The translations under genes and the position numbers were made by a program. Below, piece after piece: positions 24,673 through 60,094 of a DNA stretch of 64,000 nt (positions are counted from its first letter, which is position 1; the number at the start of each line of letters is the position of its first letter). The stretch is taken from assembly GCF_988242995.1 (NCBI RefSeq), contig NZ_OZ547043.1; one strand, 5' to 3'. Under the pieces are notes generated by a model that did not search any database, was not told the origin of the DNA, and saw nothing but the letters and a program-made list of their open reading frames with translations.

Positions 24673-24744
24673 AGAAATCACAGGACATTGCTAATGCTGG
24701 TACGCAATATTACCTGAAGCTAAAAACCTGCACGTTAGCCCTTT

Positions 24745-24850
24745 GTAGGCCAGATAAGACGCGTCAGCGTCGCATCTGGCATAAACAAAGCGCACTTTGC
24801 TGGTCTGTTCCCCTCACCCTAACCCTCTCCCCGGAGGGGCGAGGGGACTG
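24745..24850. repeat. REP-like palindromic units and a GC-rich palindrome in the fimH-gntP intergenic region
   Basis: gtaggccagataagacgcgtcagcgtcgcatctggc and ctccccggaggggcgagggga palindromes. Confidence 0.4.
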
Positions 24851-29537: not shown

Positions 29538-30311
29538 ATGAAATCTGCCACCTCTGCGCAAAGACCTTACCAGGAAGTCGGGGCGATGATCCGCGATCTG
29601 ATCATAAAGACGCCGTACAATCCTGGCGAACGGCTGCCGCCGGAGCGTGAAATTGCAGAAATGCTTGATGTCACGCGGACGGTGGTACGTGAAGCGCTGA
29701 TCATGCTGGAGATCAAAGGGCTGGTGGAAGTACGCCGGGGTGCCGGTATCTATGTTCTTGATAACTCAGGCAGCCAGAACACAGACAGTCCGGATGCCAA
29801 CGTCTGCAACGATGCCGGTCCTTTTGAGCTGTTACAGGCGCGGCAGTTATTGGAGAGCAACATCGCCGAGTTTGCCGCTTTGCAGGCTACCCGCGAAGAT
29901 ATCGTCAAAATGCGTCAGGCATTGCAACTGGAAGAGCGTGAACTGGCTTCCAGTGCGCCGGGCAGCAGCGAAAGCGGTGACATGCAGTTCCATCTCGCTA
30001 TTGCCGAAGCAACGCATAACAGCATGCTGGTGGAGCTGTTCCGTCAGTCCTGGCAGTGGCGGGAAAACAATCCAATGTGGATCCAGTTGCACAGCCATCT
30101 GGATGACAGCCTGTATCGCAAAGAGTGGTTGGGCGATCACAAACAGATCCTCGCCGCGTTAATCAAAAAAGATGCCCGAGCGGCGAAGCTGGCAATGTGG
30201 CAGCATCTGGAAAACGTTAAGCAACGTCTGCTGGAATTCTCGAACGTTGACGATATTTATTTTGATGGCTATCTGTTTGATTCATGGCCGCTGGATAAAG
30301 TCGACGCCTGA
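29538..30311 (+). CDS. uxuR: GntR/FadR-family repressor of hexuronate genes
   Basis: 257-aa ORF with N-terminal GntR HTH. Confidence 0.95.
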   Translation: MKSATSAQRPYQEVGAMIRDLIIKTPYNPGERLPPEREIAEMLDVTRTVVREALIMLEIKGLVEVRRGAGIYVLDNSGSQNTDSPDANVCNDAGPFELLQARQLLESNIAEFAALQATREDIVKMRQALQLEERELASSAPGSSESGDMQFHLAIAEATHNSMLVELFRQSWQWRENNPMWIQLHSHLDDSLYRKEWLGDHKQILAALIKKDARAAKLAMWQHLENVKQRLLEFSNVDDIYFDGYLFDSWPLDKVDA

Positions 30312-30451
30312 CTTATTATAATAAGCGCAAGGGTAAACGTTCCTTGCGCTTTCTTAAATTAAGAAGTCGCAATGAGTATTACTTTGTAAATTGCAGGGTA
30401 TTGTTTAGCTATCTGTATAACCTGAATGTTAGTACTCATTCTTCCTGGTAG

Positions 30452-31282
30452 TTATTTACCAATATAATTCCATTCACCATTTTTTAATTCAAACAGTTCT
30501 GGAAGAGATGACGGTTGCAGAGTCATACGTTTGAGTGGTGCATTTTCATCACCCGGGATAACTTTATATCCCATTTTTGCATGGATCTCCGCGGTACCGG
30601 GATAGGCTTCTATACCAATTATTGGGTCATTACCCAACTCAATATTAGCATTAAGTAATGCGGCAAGGGCGAATCCGGAAGAATTTGCTACCCCTGTTAC
30701 CGTCATTATCTGATCAATATAGATATCAATCCTTGGCTGCTCATTGGTCCATCTTTTTGCCTGAGAAGCTGGAAGGGTTGAAATATATCCTATCGTGGTT
30801 CCGGCATAACCAGGAACATTGCAACCAGGGCCTAATGTTATTTCATGAACTGTATAGTCCTCAACAGGATCGAAAGGGCTCTTCATAAATAAATTTAGCC
30901 GTAAACCTTCTGCTAACTCTGTGGTAGCATGCGCCTTTTTACATATGCCACCATATATTTCGTCTAAAGCTGAGGTGATTTTCAAGTTCCGATAGAGCAT
31001 ACGTCCTGTTGTTGTAATACCATCGGATTCTCTGCATGCTCCTGTCACATAATTAAATGGCCAAGGCTCTTTACTAATATCAAGTTTTCTAATTTCGACA
31101 ACGCTTTTTCCATCGTAATTATGGTTATTGCCACGAGTAAGAGGCGGAAGATAGATGTTTTCCGAATCCATGCGTGCATATTTTAATTTACGTGTAAACT
31201 CACTGTCGACTATTGGGTGATGAAGGAAGTGAGCATCTGTAATAATTTGACTCTGAAGGGCATTGCTTAATGGCATAGACAT
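30452..31282 (-). CDS. yjiC: uncharacterised protein YjiC
   Basis: 276-aa ORF in the expected position; no motif recognised. Confidence 0.75.
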   Translation of the reverse strand: MSMPLSNALQSQIITDAHFLHHPIVDSEFTRKLKYARMDSENIYLPPLTRGNNHNYDGKSVVEIRKLDISKEPWPFNYVTGACRESDGITTTGRMLYRNLKITSALDEIYGGICKKAHATTELAEGLRLNLFMKSPFDPVEDYTVHEITLGPGCNVPGYAGTTIGYISTLPASQAKRWTNEQPRIDIYIDQIMTVTGVANSSGFALAALLNANIELGNDPIIGIEAYPGTAEIHAKMGYKVIPGDENAPLKRMTLQPSSLPELFELKNGEWNYIGK

Positions 31283-31954
31283 AATAGTTACCTTTTATGA
31301 GTATTTCACTGATGTTTAGAAAAATAGATAAATTTTTCTGTAGTAAAAAGAGAAGTAAACAAATGACATGCATGTTTCTGTTGTAGTGATATCAACTCTA
31401 CACGGTGATATTAAAGGGTAGGAAACACTCTAAAGTATCAAAAAACGCTCATTTAAAATTACTTGCATGCAATTTAAAAGCATATCTTATTACTAATTGG
31501 AATTTGATGTTGCTATATTGAGGTCTATATTAATAATGCCTGTGAATGGTATTTTTGATGTATTTGATATGTTATCAATTTATATTATTTACAAACTAAT
31601 TGTTTCAAATAATACATGGCTGATTATGCGGAAATAAATAATTTCCCACCGGAATTAAGTAGCAGCGGTGACAAGTATTTTCATCTACGTAACTATTCGG
31701 AATATTCAGAATATACTAGCGGTTTTTTTTTGAGTTTGATGATTTTTATCAAATCATGACTTTTTTCCTGAAAAGTCAGTAGATATTCATAGGCAAGTAA
31801 GGTTTTATACTTTGCTGACAGGATTCAGGCCTGTCTCAGACTGACATGGATGTAATGAACAAAAGGGAATGGCTATGGAAAATGAGCATCAATACAGTGG
31901 TGCCCGGTGTTCAGGGCAAGCCGCATATGTTGCTAAACGTCAGGAGTGCGCAAA

Positions 31955-32347
31955 ATGATGCGACAATCACTTCAGGCTGTTTTACCTGAAATTTCAGGCA
32001 ATAAAACGTCATCGCTGCGTAAATCGGTATGCAGCGATCTCCTCACTCTTTTTAATTCTCCTCATTCGGCATTACCGTCATTACTTGTTTCAGGCATGCC
32101 CGAGTGGCAAGTGCATAACCCGAGCGACAAACATCTCCAGAGCTGGTATTGCCGTCAGCTGCGTTCTGCACTGTTATTTCATGAGCCACGGATTGCGGCG
32201 TTGCAGGTTAATTTGAAAGAAGCGTACTGCCACACTCTGGCGATCAGCCTTGAGATAATGCTGTACCACGACGATGAACCGCTAACGTTTGATCTGGTCT
32301 GGGATAATGGCGGTTGGCGCAGTGCGACGCTGGAGAATGTCAGCTAA
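31955..32347 (+). CDS. iraD: anti-adaptor protein IraD (stabilises RpoS)
   Basis: 130 aa from [17 protein letters not shown]...; recognised from memory. Confidence 0.8.
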
Positions 32348-33251
32348 GCACAATCTCCAGCTCGCGCAGTTCACGCCAGAAGCGTTCGGCAACGGGATTC
32401 ATGCGGGTATTCATCCGGTATGCATAGGCCTGAATCGGGATCACCAGTTCGTCCCGATTCAGTACAACGAGCTTCCCGCTGCGAATTTCTTGTTGGATGG
32501 CGTACTCCGGCAGCCAGGCAATCCCACAGCCGTCGAGGGCAACCTGCTTTAAAAGCTCGCTCATCGAAGAGACAAAAAAGGTGCTGAAACTTAACTCACT
32601 GTGGCGCGTCAGGGTGCGATTAATCAATCGCCCCATGTAGGAGTTGCGGCTGTAATTCAGTAACGGAAAGTGTGGCTGCGCGAGGTTAAAAAGTGCTTCT
32701 CCGTGTTCGTCACTGGCGCAGACAGGGAACAATTGAGATTCAAATAAGCGAATGTGGTCAAACGGCGCTTCCAGCAAATCTTCGTCGTGAAAGGAAAAAA
32801 TACAGTCACTTTGCCCTTCACGCAGTTTATCGACCGCTTCATCGACATCAATAGCTTCAATTGCCCAGGTAAAGAGCGGCGGCATCTGGCTGATAATGGA
32901 CGGTAACAGCCCGAGGGAAAGAGAGTGTGCAGCGGCTATCTTGATTTTTCGTTGCGCGTAATCGCTGCCGCCACGCAGCTCTGCCAGATTGCTCTCTAAC
33001 TGTTGCAACAGATGGCGGATCTGCGAATGGAAGATTTTCCCTTGTTCTGAGAGTTGCAGCGGCGTTACCTGGCGGTTAAACAATTCAACACCAATCGCCT
33101 GTTCCAGCGCACGGATGCGGCGGCTGAATGCCGGTTGCGAGACGTTGCGACTGACTGCCGCCTGGGAAAAATTGCGGCATTTTTCCAGGGTCAGAAAATC
33201 ATAAAGCCATTTGGTTTCAATATTATGCAAAATCGCACCACAGTCATCCAT
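32340..33251 (-). CDS. hypT: LysR-family transcriptional regulator (hypochlorite-responsive HypT)
   Basis: 303-aa ORF with LysR N-terminal HTH ([31 protein letters not shown]). Confidence 0.85.
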
Positions 33252-33315
33252 TACGTTTTACTCTGTCAGCCGCCCTTGCGGGCATTCTACGTCCATTCGG
33301 GCGGCTGACAACCGT

Positions 33316-34488
33316 TTAAGCCGTTTCAAACGTTCCTTTCACGCAGGCTTTGCCGTCTTTGACCATCAGTTTGCCGCGAGCGTATACCTGCTCAATGCGC
33401 AGTTCTGGCGTCATGACCAGCAAGTCAGCATCATTGCCTGGCAGAATTTCGCCTTTCCCGGTCAGGTTAAGGAAACCGGCTACGCTACTGGTGAGCGGGC
33501 GCAGGGCATCGCTGATACTGAAATCATAGTCTTTGACCAGCACCTGCACGGTTTCCAGCAACGTTTCAAAACCGGCAACACCGATATGGGTTAAATTCCC
33601 TTCGTCATCGAAGAACGGCTGGCTACCGTTGCCGTCGGAGCTGAGGGTGACGCGTGCCAGCGGAATACCCGCCTGAACGGCGCGGGCAATACCTTCGGCA
33701 GGGGCGACCGGTTCGTCAATGCTGCTGGTGATATCGATGGTGCCGCCTTTGCGCGCGAACTCCAGCGCCTGCTCAAACAACGGTACGTTGCGGTTAACGT
33801 GGGTCGGCAGCAGCTTGCTGATCGGCACATCGCAGTTTTCCAGCAGGTCATAAATAGGCTGTAACGCCTTTTTACTGTCGCCCATGTGGAACACGGTGAC
33901 GCCAGGTTTACCGCCGAGCAAACCGCCAACGCGGGATTCTGCCGCCATATTGGCCAGGCGATAAACGTCCGGTGCGGCAGAACGGTGATCAGAGATGGCG
34001 CATTTCACGCCAATCACACGATCGATAATCGCCACGTCTTTTTCCACGGAACCCGTAATGGTGCGGGAAGGGACATGATAAGCGCCGGTCAGCATCCAGG
34101 CGCTGATGCCTTCTTCATTGAGCGCACGGGTCTTGGCGAGCAGGGATTCCGGGTGGCGAGAGATAGAGTCGGTGCCCAGCAGACCAACCACTGACGTGAC
34201 GCCCGCTTCCGTCAGGCGACTTAGCGCCACTTCCGGCGTGCGCGTCGTGGGACCTGCTTCGCCGCCACCGCCAATCAAATGGACGTGTTGATCAATAAAA
34301 CCTGGGCAGAGGATCTGCCCACTGAGATCGACAACCGTGCAGTTCGGTACAATGTCAGAAGGGATATTGCTGGCAACGGCGATAATTTTGCCGTTAGCGA
34401 CGAGGACATCGCAAATTCCCCGATCTTCCGGCGCATACAAATGCGCTCCCTGCAGCAGGGTAAAACCGGCTGCGGTATAATCAATCAT
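33316..34488 (-). CDS. iadA: isoaspartyl dipeptidase (amidohydrolase superfamily)
   Basis: 390-aa ORF with metal-binding HxH near the N-terminus (DQHVHLIGG). Confidence 0.9.
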   Translation of the reverse strand: MIDYTAAGFTLLQGAHLYAPEDRGICDVLVANGKIIAVASNIPSDIVPNCTVVDLSGQILCPGFIDQHVHLIGGGGEAGPTTRTPEVALSRLTEAGVTSVVGLLGTDSISRHPESLLAKTRALNEEGISAWMLTGAYHVPSRTITGSVEKDVAIIDRVIGVKCAISDHRSAAPDVYRLANMAAESRVGGLLGGKPGVTVFHMGDSKKALQPIYDLLENCDVPISKLLPTHVNRNVPLFEQALEFARKGGTIDITSSIDEPVAPAEGIARAVQAGIPLARVTLSSDGNGSQPFFDDEGNLTHIGVAGFETLLETVQVLVKDYDFSISDALRPLTSSVAGFLNLTGKGEILPGNDADLLVMTPELRIEQVYARGKLMVKDGKACVKGTFETA

Positions 34489-34500
34489 GGTAACTCCTTG

Positions 34501-34962
34501 TTAAACAATAAGCTGCATAACCCAGATCGACAGCAATGCGTTAATCACGCAGACCGTAATGATATGCGGGTAATATTTGGCATTCACTTCGGCTGTCCCC
34601 AGGCAGCGACCGACATTTTGCACCGGGTTGCCCATTAAATACATCGCGGGCAGTAAAACGGTGACATCGTGACCGGTTAATGCGCCAGCGGTTGCCAGAC
34701 TGGCGGCAACACCGACTGCGCCACCCATACTCATTAATGCGGCTAAAAGGACGGTTGCCGCTTCACCGGGTAATCCCCACAGCGCCATTACGGGTTCACA
34801 GATATGCCCCACCCAGTCGAGCAGGCCGGTAATTTTCAGCGCCTGAATGATGACAAACGCCATCACCACGTTTGGCAGCAGGTTGGTCGTGGCGATAGTA
34901 AAGCCACGGCGCGCGCCATCGATAAACATATCCATGACGTTTTTGCGGACCTGAGTTGTCAT
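34501..34962 (-). CDS. yjiG: SpmB-like inner-membrane protein
   Basis: 153-aa hydrophobic ORF; overlaps yjiH stop. Confidence 0.8.
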   Translation of the reverse strand: MTTQVRKNVMDMFIDGARRGFTIATTNLLPNVVMAFVIIQALKITGLLDWVGHICEPVMALWGLPGEAATVLLAALMSMGGAVGVAASLATAGALTGHDVTVLLPAMYLMGNPVQNVGRCLGTAEVNAKYYPHIITVCVINALLSIWVMQLIV

Positions 34963-35891: not shown

Positions 35892-36446
35892 ATGGCAAAG
35901 TACAACGAAAAAGAGCTGGCGGATACGAGCAAGTTTTTAAGTTTTGTCCTCCGACACAAACCGGAGGCGATTGGTATCGTACTGGACCGTGAAGGATGGG
36001 CGGATATCGATAAGCTCATACTTTGTGCCCAAAAAGCGGGCAAGCGGTTAACCCGTGCATTGCTGGATACTGTGGTTGCCACCAGCGATAAAAAGCGTTT
36101 TAGTTATTCCAGTGATGGTAGGTGCATCCGCGCGGTTCAGGGGCATTCGACTTCGCAGGTCGCTATTTCCTTTGCCGAAAAAACACCGCCACAGTTTCTC
36201 TACCACGGTACGGCAAGCCGTTTCCTTGACGAGATAAAAAAACAGGGGCTGATTGCAGGTGAGCGTCACTACGTACATCTCTCTGCTGATGAAGCAACGG
36301 CACGCAAAGTGGGAGCAAGACACGGATCGCCGGTTATTTTAACCGTCAAAGCACAGGAAATGGCGAAACGAGGCCTCCCTTTCTGGCAAGCGGAAAACGG
36401 GGTCTGGCTGACATCAACGGTTGCGGTTGAGTTTCTTGAGTGGTAA
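35892..36446 (+). CDS. kptA: RNA 2'-phosphotransferase (Tpt1/KptA family)
   Basis: ATG at 35892 ([25 protein letters not shown]...), 184 aa. Confidence 0.9.
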
Positions 36447-36458
36447 GGGAAACTTCCC

Positions 36459-37637
36459 TCATGAAGTGACCACTTGTAGCTTAAATAATTGCACTGTGCT
36501 GATAAGCGCAGCAATAAACAACGCCGCCGCGCCGCAGAGAGTGGCGCTGGCAAGCGCCGATGTTCCATTGCTGAGCATACTGGTCAGCGCCGGGCCGAGG
36601 ATTTGCCCAATGCCGTAAATGAGCGTCACAAAGCCTAAAAGATTGAGATTTCCCGGTACGCTCAGTTGGCGGGCGATAGTCATCACCAGAGATGTCGTGC
36701 CCATAAAGGTACCGCCAAAACCAAGACTGCTGATGATAAGCAAGAGAGGCGAGTCGCTGGCGAGAGTAAGCAGCACACAGATAGCCTGCACCAGCAAATT
36801 CGCCGTCAGGCAGGGCAAAGCCCCCCAACGTTTTGCTGCCCATAGCCAGCCAAAGCAACCAGGCACAATTGATAAGCCGACTAACGTCCAGAGATGGGCG
36901 GTTAACAATGGTGAGCCTGCATCTTTCGCCATGAGCGGCAGGTAAGTCGCGACGATGATATAACCAAATCCCGCCAGGCCGTACAGAATAGCCAGTAACC
37001 ACCAGCTCATTATCTGTTGCTCCGTTTTTGCCAATGGCATTGGTGTGATGGCGTGTTTTTTCGAGGGCATTAAAAGCGTAAGTGCAATCAGCATCATGCC
37101 AGAAAGCGCCCCGGCGCCTTGCCATAACGTTTGCGAGGAGAGGTCAAAATGCAGGCCTGCCAGAACATATTCATTGCCCAGTGCGATGCCAATGCCAACG
37201 CCAGAAAACAAAGCTGCCAGCACAAAAGGATGGCGCGTGTGCTGCATAATCAGCGTCGAACCAAAAATCAGCATACCGGCGCTGGCGACACCCGCCAGGA
37301 CGCGAATCAATAACACCAGAATAAATGGCGGCAACCATGCCATTGCGAGGATCAACAACCCGCTCGCCAGGGCAGAAGCCAACAGAAATGGGCGCAGGCG
37401 CGATGGCTGGTGAAATGCGCCAAAAGAAAATAGCAGACTGCCAGCCAGATACCCCGCATAGTTGCCGCTGGCAATCCACGAGAGCTGGCTAAATGAAAAC
37501 GATCCTTCCGCCATCATGACGGGCAACATAGGCGTATAAAGGAAGCGGCCTAAACCCATACCTAAGGTCAGAACCAGCATCCCGAAAAGCGCGGTGCTGA
37601 AAGAAAAGCGTTCTACGGGATGCGTGGACGAAGGCAT
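36459..37637 (-). CDS. yjiJ: MFS-type transporter
   Basis: 392-aa polytopic membrane protein. Confidence 0.8.
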
Positions 37638-40927: not shown

Positions 40928-42208
40928 CTAAAAATTGCCGAGGGGGAACAAGGCCGGGAGCTGCGACAGCAAATATAAAATTAGCCCAATACAACCGCCA
41001 ACCAGCGTACCGTTGACACGAATAAACTGCAGATCTTTGCCGATATTTAACTCTATTTGCCGCGACATATCCCGCGCATCCCAGCTTTTTACCGTATCGC
41101 TGATGTGGCGCGTCAGGAATGCGGAAAACTCAGGCGCGACGCGGTGCGCGGCTTGTTCAAGATGACCATTTAACGACGCCCGCAAGGCATCATCGGCAAT
41201 TAACGTTTCGCCAAACCATTGACCCGCTCGTGCGATGCGTTCTTTCACACGAGAATCTTCACTGTTGATATCCACTTTCAGCCATTCCCGTAAATCCCCC
41301 CACAATTCACTGAGATAGCGATTAAAAGCTTCATCTTCTTTCAGATAGCTTTTTACGGCATCGGCTCGCGCTGCCATTTCCGGATCGTTTTTCAGCTTGT
41401 CGATCAGGGCGAAGGTGGCGCGATCAAACGCATGGCGGATCTGATGCGCACGATCGCGACTAATATCATCAAGCAAAGAATTCACCGCGTCAGAAACCAA
41501 CTCCGCGCTATGTTCGCCCAACCATTCGGTGGGGAGAATTTTGGCTTTCAGTGGATGCTCGCTCTCCAGCCAGCGAACAATTTGCTGGGCGATAAACTTG
41601 CGCGATTTATCGCGCTGGAGAAGGGCGATCAACTGTGCGATCAGCGTATCCAGCAGCACCTGATGACGATCGTTTTTGGTCATACTCTCCAGCATCAACG
41701 CACTGGTGCCGGAAAGATCGACCTTATCAATCGCCCGATGGACCGCGCGCTTAAGCAGGCGCTGAATACGCGCATCATCGGTAAGTTCGAGAAAACCGCT
41801 CATGATCTGCAACAGATGCTGACCAACGCGGCGGGCGTTTTCTGGCTGGCTAAACCAGTTGCCAATCAGCAACGCCGGTTCGTGGCGTCGAATCAATGCC
41901 ACCAGGGATTGAGTATCAAGAAATTTTTCCTGCACGAACTGGCCGAGATTTTCGCCAATCCGGTCTTTATTACGCGGGATAATCGCCGTATGGCGAGAAA
42001 TGATCGGAATCGGCACGCGGCGAAACAGCGCCACCACCGCAAACCAGTCCGCCAGCGCGCCGACCATCGCCGCTTCAGCAATCGCCTTCACGCCGCTCAC
42101 CCAAAAATTGGGCGGCAAAAACAGCGTAACGACAAAGGTAGCAGCGGCGATAAGCAGTAAAGAGAGCGCCAACCTTTTGGCGCGTCTGAGTTCGATGAGT
42201 TTATTCAT
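40928..42208 (-). CDS. yjiN: DUF445-family inner-membrane protein
   Basis: 426-aa ORF with N-terminal TM helices. Confidence 0.8.
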
Positions 42209-56600: not shown

Positions 56601-57016
56601 TGACCGATGGCGCTGAAGTGGCGCTGGATACGCTGTTTAAAGATAAAGATCGCCCCGGTAACCGGCCTTTCCATGACTGGATGAGCATAGCGGATTTTCA
56701 GGATTTCGCTGATCAGTGGTTTGCTGCTGCGCTGGGCAGGCCGATAGAACTGACGGTGTTCGATTCGCCGCGCGATATCCCTCACCATCGTAAACTGACG
56801 GTGACTTTTGAGGATGGTCAGGTATTGAAGATCCGCTTCGATCAGGGGATGGGCTACTGGCGCATCAACTTTGCATCGCAATGGCATTACTTTGATTTCC
56901 GCGATGACGTTTCTTTCCAGTTAGTCAAAATGGCTCAGGCCTGCAAGGAAGGGAATGTGGCCAACAGCGAAGAGAGCTGGGCAACGGATGTGCTGGTGGA
57001 GGTGATCGCCTCCTGA
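50672..57016 (+). CDS. giant SF2 (DEAH-type) helicase, 2114 aa, with Cys-rich zinc-ribbon clusters (DUF1998/MrfA-like); DruE-like candidate
   Basis: Walker [11 protein letters not shown] (51041-51070); DEAH box VLDEAH (51455-51472); FVATSAT; motif [10 protein letters not shown] (54104-54127); Cys clusters at 52046-52183, 54956-55045, 55292-55303 and 55769-55801; AAGGA RBS before the ATG. Confidence 0.85.
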
Positions 57017-57023
57017 TGATGTG

Positions 57024-57050
57024 CCGCTCCCGACGTCGTGTCGGGAGCGG
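57024..57050. terminator. bidirectional hairpin terminator between the convergent helicase gene and mcrC
   Basis: Perfect inverted repeat ccgctcccgac-gtcgt-gtcgggagcgg 8 nt after the helicase stop, followed by tattgtct. Confidence 0.55.
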
Positions 57051-57072
57051 TATTGTCTATAAAACTTACCGC

Positions 57073-60001: not shown

Positions 60002-60072
60002 GATTACTATTCCTTAGAAATAGGGATTGTGATTAGCGGTGCGGGTGTGTTGGCGCACATCCGCACCGCGCT
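59996..60072 (+). ncRNA. symR: cis-antisense sRNA SymR (antitoxin RNA of symE), approximate
   Basis: Plus-strand TAGAAT -10 at 59983-59988 inside the symE 5' codons; GC-rich hairpin at 60036-60069 would end a roughly 77-nt transcript antisense to the symE RBS and start codon. Boundaries inferred. Confidence 0.35.
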
Positions 60073-60078
60073 AAATAC

Positions 60079-60094
60079 CTGGATATATCATCAG
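60079..60094. promoter_or_regulatory. LexA box (SOS operator) upstream of symE
   Basis: CTGGATATATCATCAG fits CTGT-N8-ACAG with one mismatch in each half; about 80 bp upstream of the symE start. Confidence 0.5.

Follow-up and report, generated by a model that had tools for sequence, protein, structure and literature searches.

The 8-bp overlap at the 3' ends of the convergent genes iraD and hypT is probably a passive fusion in which two unrelated genes meet tail to tail at the border of the structurally variable GimA segment of Escherichia coli, with no dedicated regulatory device. The overlap is already known through annotation and is of an ordinary kind for E. coli. The window analysed here is a stretch of 64,000 nucleotides (contig NZ_OZ547043.1 of NCBI RefSeq assembly GCF_988242995.1); it represents an E. 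coli K-12-like chromosome, positions 31800-33300 being 100% identical to MG1655.

The iraD-hypT junction

The two genes, iraD (K-12-type allele, 130 aa; 31955-32347, plus strand) and hypT (also yjiE or qseD, 303 aa; 32340-33251, minus strand), share the 8 bp TCAGCTAA at 32340-32347. Read in the iraD frame, 32333-32349 give GAG AAT GTC AGC TAA, with the iraD stop TAA at 32345-32347 (plus strand); the minus strand reads ATT GTG CTT AGC TGA, the hypT stop TGA being the reverse complement of 32340-32342. The shared bases hold part of V129, S130, and the stop of IraD, and part of L302, S303, and the stop of HypT. The octamer is unchanged in all five K-12-type E. coli genomes sampled, and the RefSeq/PGAP annotation of MG1655 carries the same overlap (L001: iraD 3156-3548, plus strand; hypT 3541-4452, minus strand); the convergent overlap described in an earlier sequence-only reading of the window is exact in both stop positions.

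IraD matches the NCBIfam equivalog NF010726 over positions 1-130 of 130 (303 bits; cut-off 198) and Pfam GPW_gp25 (PF04965, gp25/TssE-like fold) over residues 20-106 (51 bits); NCBIfam has three IraD equivalog models, with lengths of 130, 127, and 126 positions. HypT, a LysR-type regulator, matches NCBIfam equivalog NF007488 over positions 1-303 of 303 (696 bits; cut-off 301), with Pfam HTH_1 at residues 14-72 and LysR_substrate at residues 99-297. Stop codons define both ends and both proteins have been characterised, which rules out a gene-calling artefact; the overlap is that of a convergent overlapping gene pair, in which two genuine protein-coding genes on opposite strands share 3' bases. 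In the bovine isolate E. coli 7_26_9A (L081), hypT is annotated as a frameshifted pseudogene and iraD is intact.

The overlapped codons lie outside the Pfam domains, which end at residue 106 of IraD and residue 297 of HypT, and beyond the part of IraD that was built in the IraD-RssB crystal structure (residues 18-124 only; PMC6546054). The HypT tails vary by lineage (EIVLS, EIEPG, EIRLS, HTAP, QAAL), and in E. coli the polymorphisms of the IraD tail change the amino acid (R122C, T125M). Variation seems to be tolerated in both tails, and sharing 8 bases would for this reason cost little.

Nine junctions of the window are convergent, the genes lying -8, 12, 45, 56, 140, 242, 243, 267, and 332 bp apart, and iraD-hypT is the sole pair that overlaps. 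In MG1655 as a whole, 75 convergent overlapping gene pairs were counted by Huvet and Stumpf (PMC4161906), and Conway et al. found complementary 3' ends in 276 of 370 convergent E. coli operons, with a mean overlap of 286 nt (PMC4161252); in this species, therefore, neither a convergent gene overlap nor an overlap of transcripts is out of the ordinary. The window also holds the convergent pair kptA-yjiJ (36446-36459), with a 12-bp spacer and a weak best junction hairpin (-17.2 kcal/mol).

Variation at the junction within E. coli

The window shows the GimA-negative pattern: yjiD (iraD) is adjacent to yjiE (hypT), with no ptnI-to-ibeT sequence between them. The GimA locus reportedly goes back to Huang et al. 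in 2001. According to the accessible text of Homeier et al. (2010; PMC2878320), GimA is 'always located between yjiD and yjiE', the locus occurs in GimA-positive, remnant, and GimA-negative patterns (MG1655 being GimA-negative), and two successive deletions were proposed at this site.

A contiguous K-12-type junction was found in 4879-4880 of 5426 complete E. coli genomes (~90%); B2-type strains instead have the 20-kb GimA island, or its ptnI remnant, between iraD and hypT. Of the 5393 genomes that gave a match, about 514 show a break in homology at window position 32336 or 32351, and in ~10% of E. coli genomes iraD and hypT are 0.4-20 kb apart. In the GimA-positive strain S22EC (L077) the 20 kb between them comprise ptsP/ptnI, dhaLK, gcl, ibeA, and nhaC/ibeT; in the remnant strain 200177 (L076) the genes are separated by a 372-bp fragment of ptnI, a PEP-phosphotransferase gene. 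IraD of GimA-positive and remnant strains has 127 aa (...WHRTMPQ*) and its gene is followed by a hairpin with a 12-bp stem; the 86-nt hypT-ibeT spacer of the GimA-positive strain holds a 10-11-bp GC-rich hairpin past hypT. Both intergenic hairpins (z -4.8 to -5.9) are missing from K-12. They were considered as intrinsic terminators, but the consensus scan was negative and a canonical U tract is absent, and they are called stem-loops here.

When K-12 is aligned with B2 strains, homology in iraD stops at 32318 and resumes on the hypT side at 32336, four bases past the hypT stop. Between these points lies a junction segment of 17 nt (32319-32335) without a GimA-positive counterpart; it encodes the K-12-specific IraD tail, forms the left arm of the stem described below, and is collinear with the junctions of Escherichia sp. 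MOD1-EC7003 and E. whittamii. K-12 iraD ends at a TAA that is already present in GimA-positive strains, unused by iraD, as the complement of HypT Leu302-Ser303 (CTT AGC); the stop of K-12 iraD thus exists for a reason unconnected with iraD.

Between K-12 and B2 the flanks are ~96.5% identical and iraD is 77% identical (Blastn segments). B2 E. coli, E. whittamii, and Escherichia sp. E1V33 lack an AT-rich K-12-type block with yjiC and the iraD leader (30312-31690, GC 29-43%; Blastn segments). This block is the left part of a deeply divergent K-12-type haplotype whose right-hand end is the overlap. The haplotype spans window positions 30312-32335, and the absence of the block elsewhere, with the low identity of iraD between well-matched flanks, suggests an old allelic replacement or a horizontal origin. 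A simple microhomology deletion, between ...GCAG(T/AA)AAATG and ...GCAGAATAATG beside the GimA-positive breakpoints, was also considered and set aside, K-12 iraD being too divergent from B2 (77%) for the event to be reconstructed.

The hypT tail occurs as two alleles at 32340-32351, EIVLS* in K-12 and GimA-positive B2 strains and EIEPG* in remnant strains, E1V33, and E. whittamii (L076, L003, L004). They differ by a substitution cluster, and their distribution does not follow whether the junction is fused or unfused, which points to recombination or repeated events.

Junctions in related bacteria

HypT was followed through one genome per GTDB species (73 loci, with flanks of 4 kb). Among these loci, iraD adjoins hypT only in the genus Escherichia, and no iraD was found within the 4-kb hypT flank in Citrobacter, Salmonella, or the other genera scanned. 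In Salmonella (L007) hypT is 81% identical and converges with a 244-aa aspartate racemase-like gene 4 nt away. Within Escherichia, E. whittamii has a collinear fused junction in which a 1-nt indel and point changes lead to a 134-aa IraD and a 21-bp overlap; in Escherichia sp. E1V33 iraD and hypT are 426 bp apart, with a ~370-bp fragment of a PEP-phosphotransferase gene between them; and the junction of MOD1-EC7003 is again collinear and fused. The 8-bp overlap is not a conserved design, and the length of the overlap varies between lineages.

Only the last ~22 codons of K-12-type iraD are left beside hypT in MOD1-EC7003 (L002, ~4905-4980), the rest of the gene being replaced by AT-rich sequence, and the 8-bp overlap sequence is retained. 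A 605-bp contig assigned to 'Bacillus coahuilensis m4-4' (NZ_ABFU01000118.1; L073) has 100% protein identity to the E. coli iraD-hypT junction and is almost certainly a contaminant from E. coli.

Transcript ends

The earlier reading had concluded that the junction leaves no space for separate terminators and that the two transcripts must overlap. The latter is confirmed: a full-length iraD or hypT mRNA includes the complement of the last codons of its partner. With no spacer, and no match to an intrinsic terminator within ~1 kb, the complementarity of full-length mRNAs amounts to 8 nt as a minimum and in practice exceeds it; termination of both transcripts before the overlap is untenable for functional messages, since such mRNAs would lack stop codons. 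The former is right in that there is zero intergenic DNA and no intrinsic terminator, but it overlooked a strong stem-loop within the coding ends (32317-32372).

A consensus scan of 31300-33800 found no intrinsic-terminator-like site on either strand. At the junction itself the combination of a GC-rich stem and a directly following U tract that defines an intrinsic (Rho-independent) terminator is absent: the stem is followed by GCAGUUCAC on the plus strand and CUGCGCC on the minus strand, with no U tract on either. Directly downstream of the hypT stop, in the hypT transcript, lies a C-rich, G-poor tract (32262-32339, minus strand; 35% C, 21% G), a candidate Rho loading region by a composition heuristic. 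Its C/G ratio of 1.69 falls in the 90th-95th percentile on the scale of the whole window (median 1.0, 90th percentile 1.55). In its 3' region the iraD message has a moderate C/G ratio of ~1.0-1.3 over 200 nt.

Upstream of hypT, the best sigma-70-like promoter match (33284-33311, minus strand; TTGTCA, 16-nt spacer, TAGAAT; 10/12, a consensus match only) overlaps a strong hairpin in the 64-bp iadA-hypT spacer (33253-33311, -31 kcal/mol, stem GTCAGCCGCCC / GGGCGGCTGAC, without a U tract), with the -10 element in the loop. Upstream of iraD, the MG1655 annotation places idlP, a 27-aa leader peptide (31875-31958, plus strand; PMC5574718), whose stop overlaps the iraD start (ATGA) at a known point of translational coupling and CsrA control; in wild-type exponential cells iraD mRNA was below Northern detection (PMC5574718).

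Within the hypT CDS, ~85-115 nt past the iraD stop, there is a perfect 11-bp inverted repeat (32430-32462; CTGAATCGGGA / TCCCGATTCAG, 11-nt spacer). The minus-strand segment 32425-32483 that contains it folds to -27.3 kcal/mol, and the repeat might pause or end iraD read-through transcripts. A permissive Rfam scan of 30300-34600 returned only a chance snoRNA-like match (31368-31438, E = 0.12, far under the gathering score). The five most stable 59-nt hairpins of the window (56998-57056, 42007-42065, 7810-7868, 24736-24794, and 60022-60080; -32 to -37 kcal/mol) are probably terminators or REP-like elements; that at 24736-24794 sits in the gntP-fimH convergent spacer.

The stem-loop around the stop codons

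A quasi-palindrome at 32317-32372 is predicted to fold into a stem of ~17-19 bp with both stops in the loop. Its core arms, 32329-32340 (GCTGGAGAATGT) and 32350-32361 (ACAATCTCCAGC), are complementary at 11 of 12 positions and are extended by the outer arms 32322-32327 and 32362-32367 (GUGCGA / UCGCGC). The RNA minimum free energy is -27.1 kcal/mol on the plus strand (z -3.9) and -26.0 kcal/mol on the minus strand (z -3.1); the structure is in the top 0.03-0.2% of 59-nt windows over the 64 kb and is second in strength of the hairpins at the nine convergent junctions. Between the IraD tail GCGACGCTGGAGAATGT and the reverse complement of the hypT tail GCGAGCTGGAGATTGT, 15 of 17 positions agree, and as a result of this quasi-palindrome IraD (...LENVS*) and HypT (...LEIVLS*) end alike.

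The palindrome may be a mutational by-product without function, the complement of the hypT tail having been copied into the iraD tail by a template switch (quasi-palindrome correction) or by snap-back repair, either when the junction formed or in its later evolution. This we regard as possible, though somewhat doubtful. It would agree with the match between the tails and the similar protein ends, with the lack of a homologue of 32319-32335 in GimA-positive strains, and with the clustering of left-arm substitutions relative to E. whittamii (9/22, against 23% for iraD overall). However, the junction is collinear with the non-palindromic E. whittamii sequence, so that no single copying event is visible, and with the few lineages available a by-product is indistinguishable from selection.

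A functional RNA element common to both mRNAs is unlikely, although its length and stability, its position centred on the two stops, and its rank as an outlier among windows and junctions all speak in its favour. Such an element could be a coding-embedded bidirectional terminator working by pausing or collision, or a 3' stem that shields the messages once Rho has ended transcription and exonucleases have trimmed the transcripts. In the left arm, at least two E. coli-specific substitutions add pairing (32330 C>T and 32339 T>G, relative to MOD1-EC7003 and E. whittamii) and strengthen the stem; together with a stem-loop far stronger than expected by chance, they could reflect selection on RNA or DNA structure, which speaks against a purely passive fusion. 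All four sites that are polymorphic within E. coli are unpaired positions or keep a G-U pair, but four compatible sites out of four are expected by chance ~24% of the time (estimate); covariation was dropped as support for the stem, the variation being too small. The overlapping bidirectional terminators detected by SEnd-seq need a stem-loop and do not resemble intrinsic terminators (Ju et al. 2019, as presented in the accessible text of bioRxiv 10.1101/2022.10.23.513370), and iraD-hypT likewise has a stem-loop at the boundary of a convergent pair. The same text holds that collision-driven termination is inefficient at weakly expressed pairs. Further arguments against the element are the absence of a U tract on both sides and the translation of both arms, so that terminating ribosomes would melt the stem. 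A conserved junction hairpin was ruled out: the structure is absent in E. whittamii (z 0.06) and at the tight junctions of Salmonella and Citrobacter, and degraded in MOD1-EC7003 (z -0.2). We find it improbable that in GimA-negative E. coli the last ~7 codons of iraD and hypT co-evolved into one shared stem-loop that would serve both mRNAs in pausing or termination, or in protecting their 3' ends, and would have replaced the two GimA-positive hairpins.

Antisense transcription

Antisense interference between iraD and hypT, the consequence that the sequence-only reading drew from the overlap, is possible but unsupported: the pair is missing from three published transcriptome data sets, and no paper was found that links the two genes through antisense RNA. 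Literature searches combining iraD with hypT/yjiE, or iraD with antisense RNA or Term-seq, likewise found nothing relevant. The fullest form of the idea would be a convergent excludon, a concept reportedly due to Sesto et al. in 2013. DNA damage or stationary phase would induce iraD and with it antisense transcription through hypT, or transcription of the hypT/iadA operon would run on through iraD; either would lower expression of the partner, through colliding RNA polymerases or through cleavage of the duplex by RNase III, and RpoS stabilisation would thereby be coupled to the hypochlorite response.

Full-length transcript overlap is unavoidable, as set out above, with no intrinsic terminator predicted nearby on either strand; the moderate C/G ratio of the iraD 3' region makes read-through of several hundred nt into hypT plausible, and E. 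coli excludons correlate mainly with short intergenic distance (PMC12288877). Yet the MG1655 core excludome, with its 165 convergent pairs, includes the neighbouring kptA-yjiJ but not iraD-hypT (PMC12288877). The accessible supplements on p19-captured dsRNA have no entry for iraD, hypT, yjiE, or iadA, which low expression could explain, and the accessible Term-seq supplements of Adams et al. have no 3' end of iraD or hypT; absence from such lists may merely reflect low expression under standard conditions. The iraD transcript is in any case very scarce (PMC5574718). The arrangement is moreover broken in ~10% of E. coli genomes, and among the loci scanned it is confined to Escherichia. Oxidation of methionines controls HypT at the level of the finished protein, and given this control, tuning at the transcript level is not obviously needed. 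Taken with these points, an excludon at iraD-hypT is very unlikely.

Origin and meaning of the overlap

In the passive fusion that we prefer, the iraD frame of the GimA-negative haplotype has no stop of its own before hypT, continues into the antisense of the last hypT codons, and ends at the TAA that complements HypT Leu302-Ser303. Each mRNA would then extend into the partner gene. Rho probably terminates hypT transcription at the C-rich tract that follows the hypT stop, judging by base composition only, whereas iraD transcription probably ends deeper within hypT, by Rho or by collision; exonucleases may then shorten the 3' ends as far as the stem-loop at 32317-32372. Mutual interference would be small, since both genes are weakly transcribed.

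The overlap as such matters little for regulation; its most informative aspect is historical, as it marks the GimA-negative joint. It also gives reason for caution, in that a striking overlap of two stress genes can be the by-product of a structural polymorphism. As IraD C-termini differ between the K-12-type (130 aa) and the B2/GimA-type (127 aa), results obtained with K-12 IraD may not transfer exactly to ExPEC. In K-12, deletion or tagging of the 3' end of iraD or hypT alters the last codons of the partner as well as the shared stem-loop, and the interpretation of iraD or hypT knock-outs in this background should consider the altered 3' end of the partner. The stem-loop around the stops is a new point and a minor lead; should it have a function, it would illustrate in compact form how a terminator-like element can be embedded in two reading frames.

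Comparison with known systems

The chromosomal site is the same as that of the GimA locus in its GimA-negative pattern (PMC2878320), and the GimA-positive and remnant forms were recovered here from complete genomes. The accessible text of that paper makes no mention of the iraD/hypT overlap, of the C-terminus of IraD (130 versus 127 aa), or of the loss of the two hairpins.

With overlapping bidirectional terminators, as described in the accessible text of bioRxiv 10.1101/2022.10.23.513370, the junction shares a symmetric stem-loop at a convergent boundary without the sequence features of a classical intrinsic terminator. It differs from them in that the predicted stem of iraD-hypT consists of translated codons and the loop contains both stops; expression of iraD and hypT is also probably too low for efficient collision-driven termination.

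Convergent excludons and overlapping 3' UTRs (PMC12288877; PMC4161252) likewise have complementary 3' ends and a very short (here negative) intergenic distance. Unlike them, iraD-hypT stands outside the published MG1655 core excludome and consists of two weakly expressed genes.

The junction also resembles convergent tail-to-tail overlapping pairs, in which the genes of opposite strands have a few bases in common, both stops among them, and the extent is set by stop placement. There is no essential difference from such pairs in general; the iraD-hypT overlap is distinguished by being traceable to a specific structural polymorphism.
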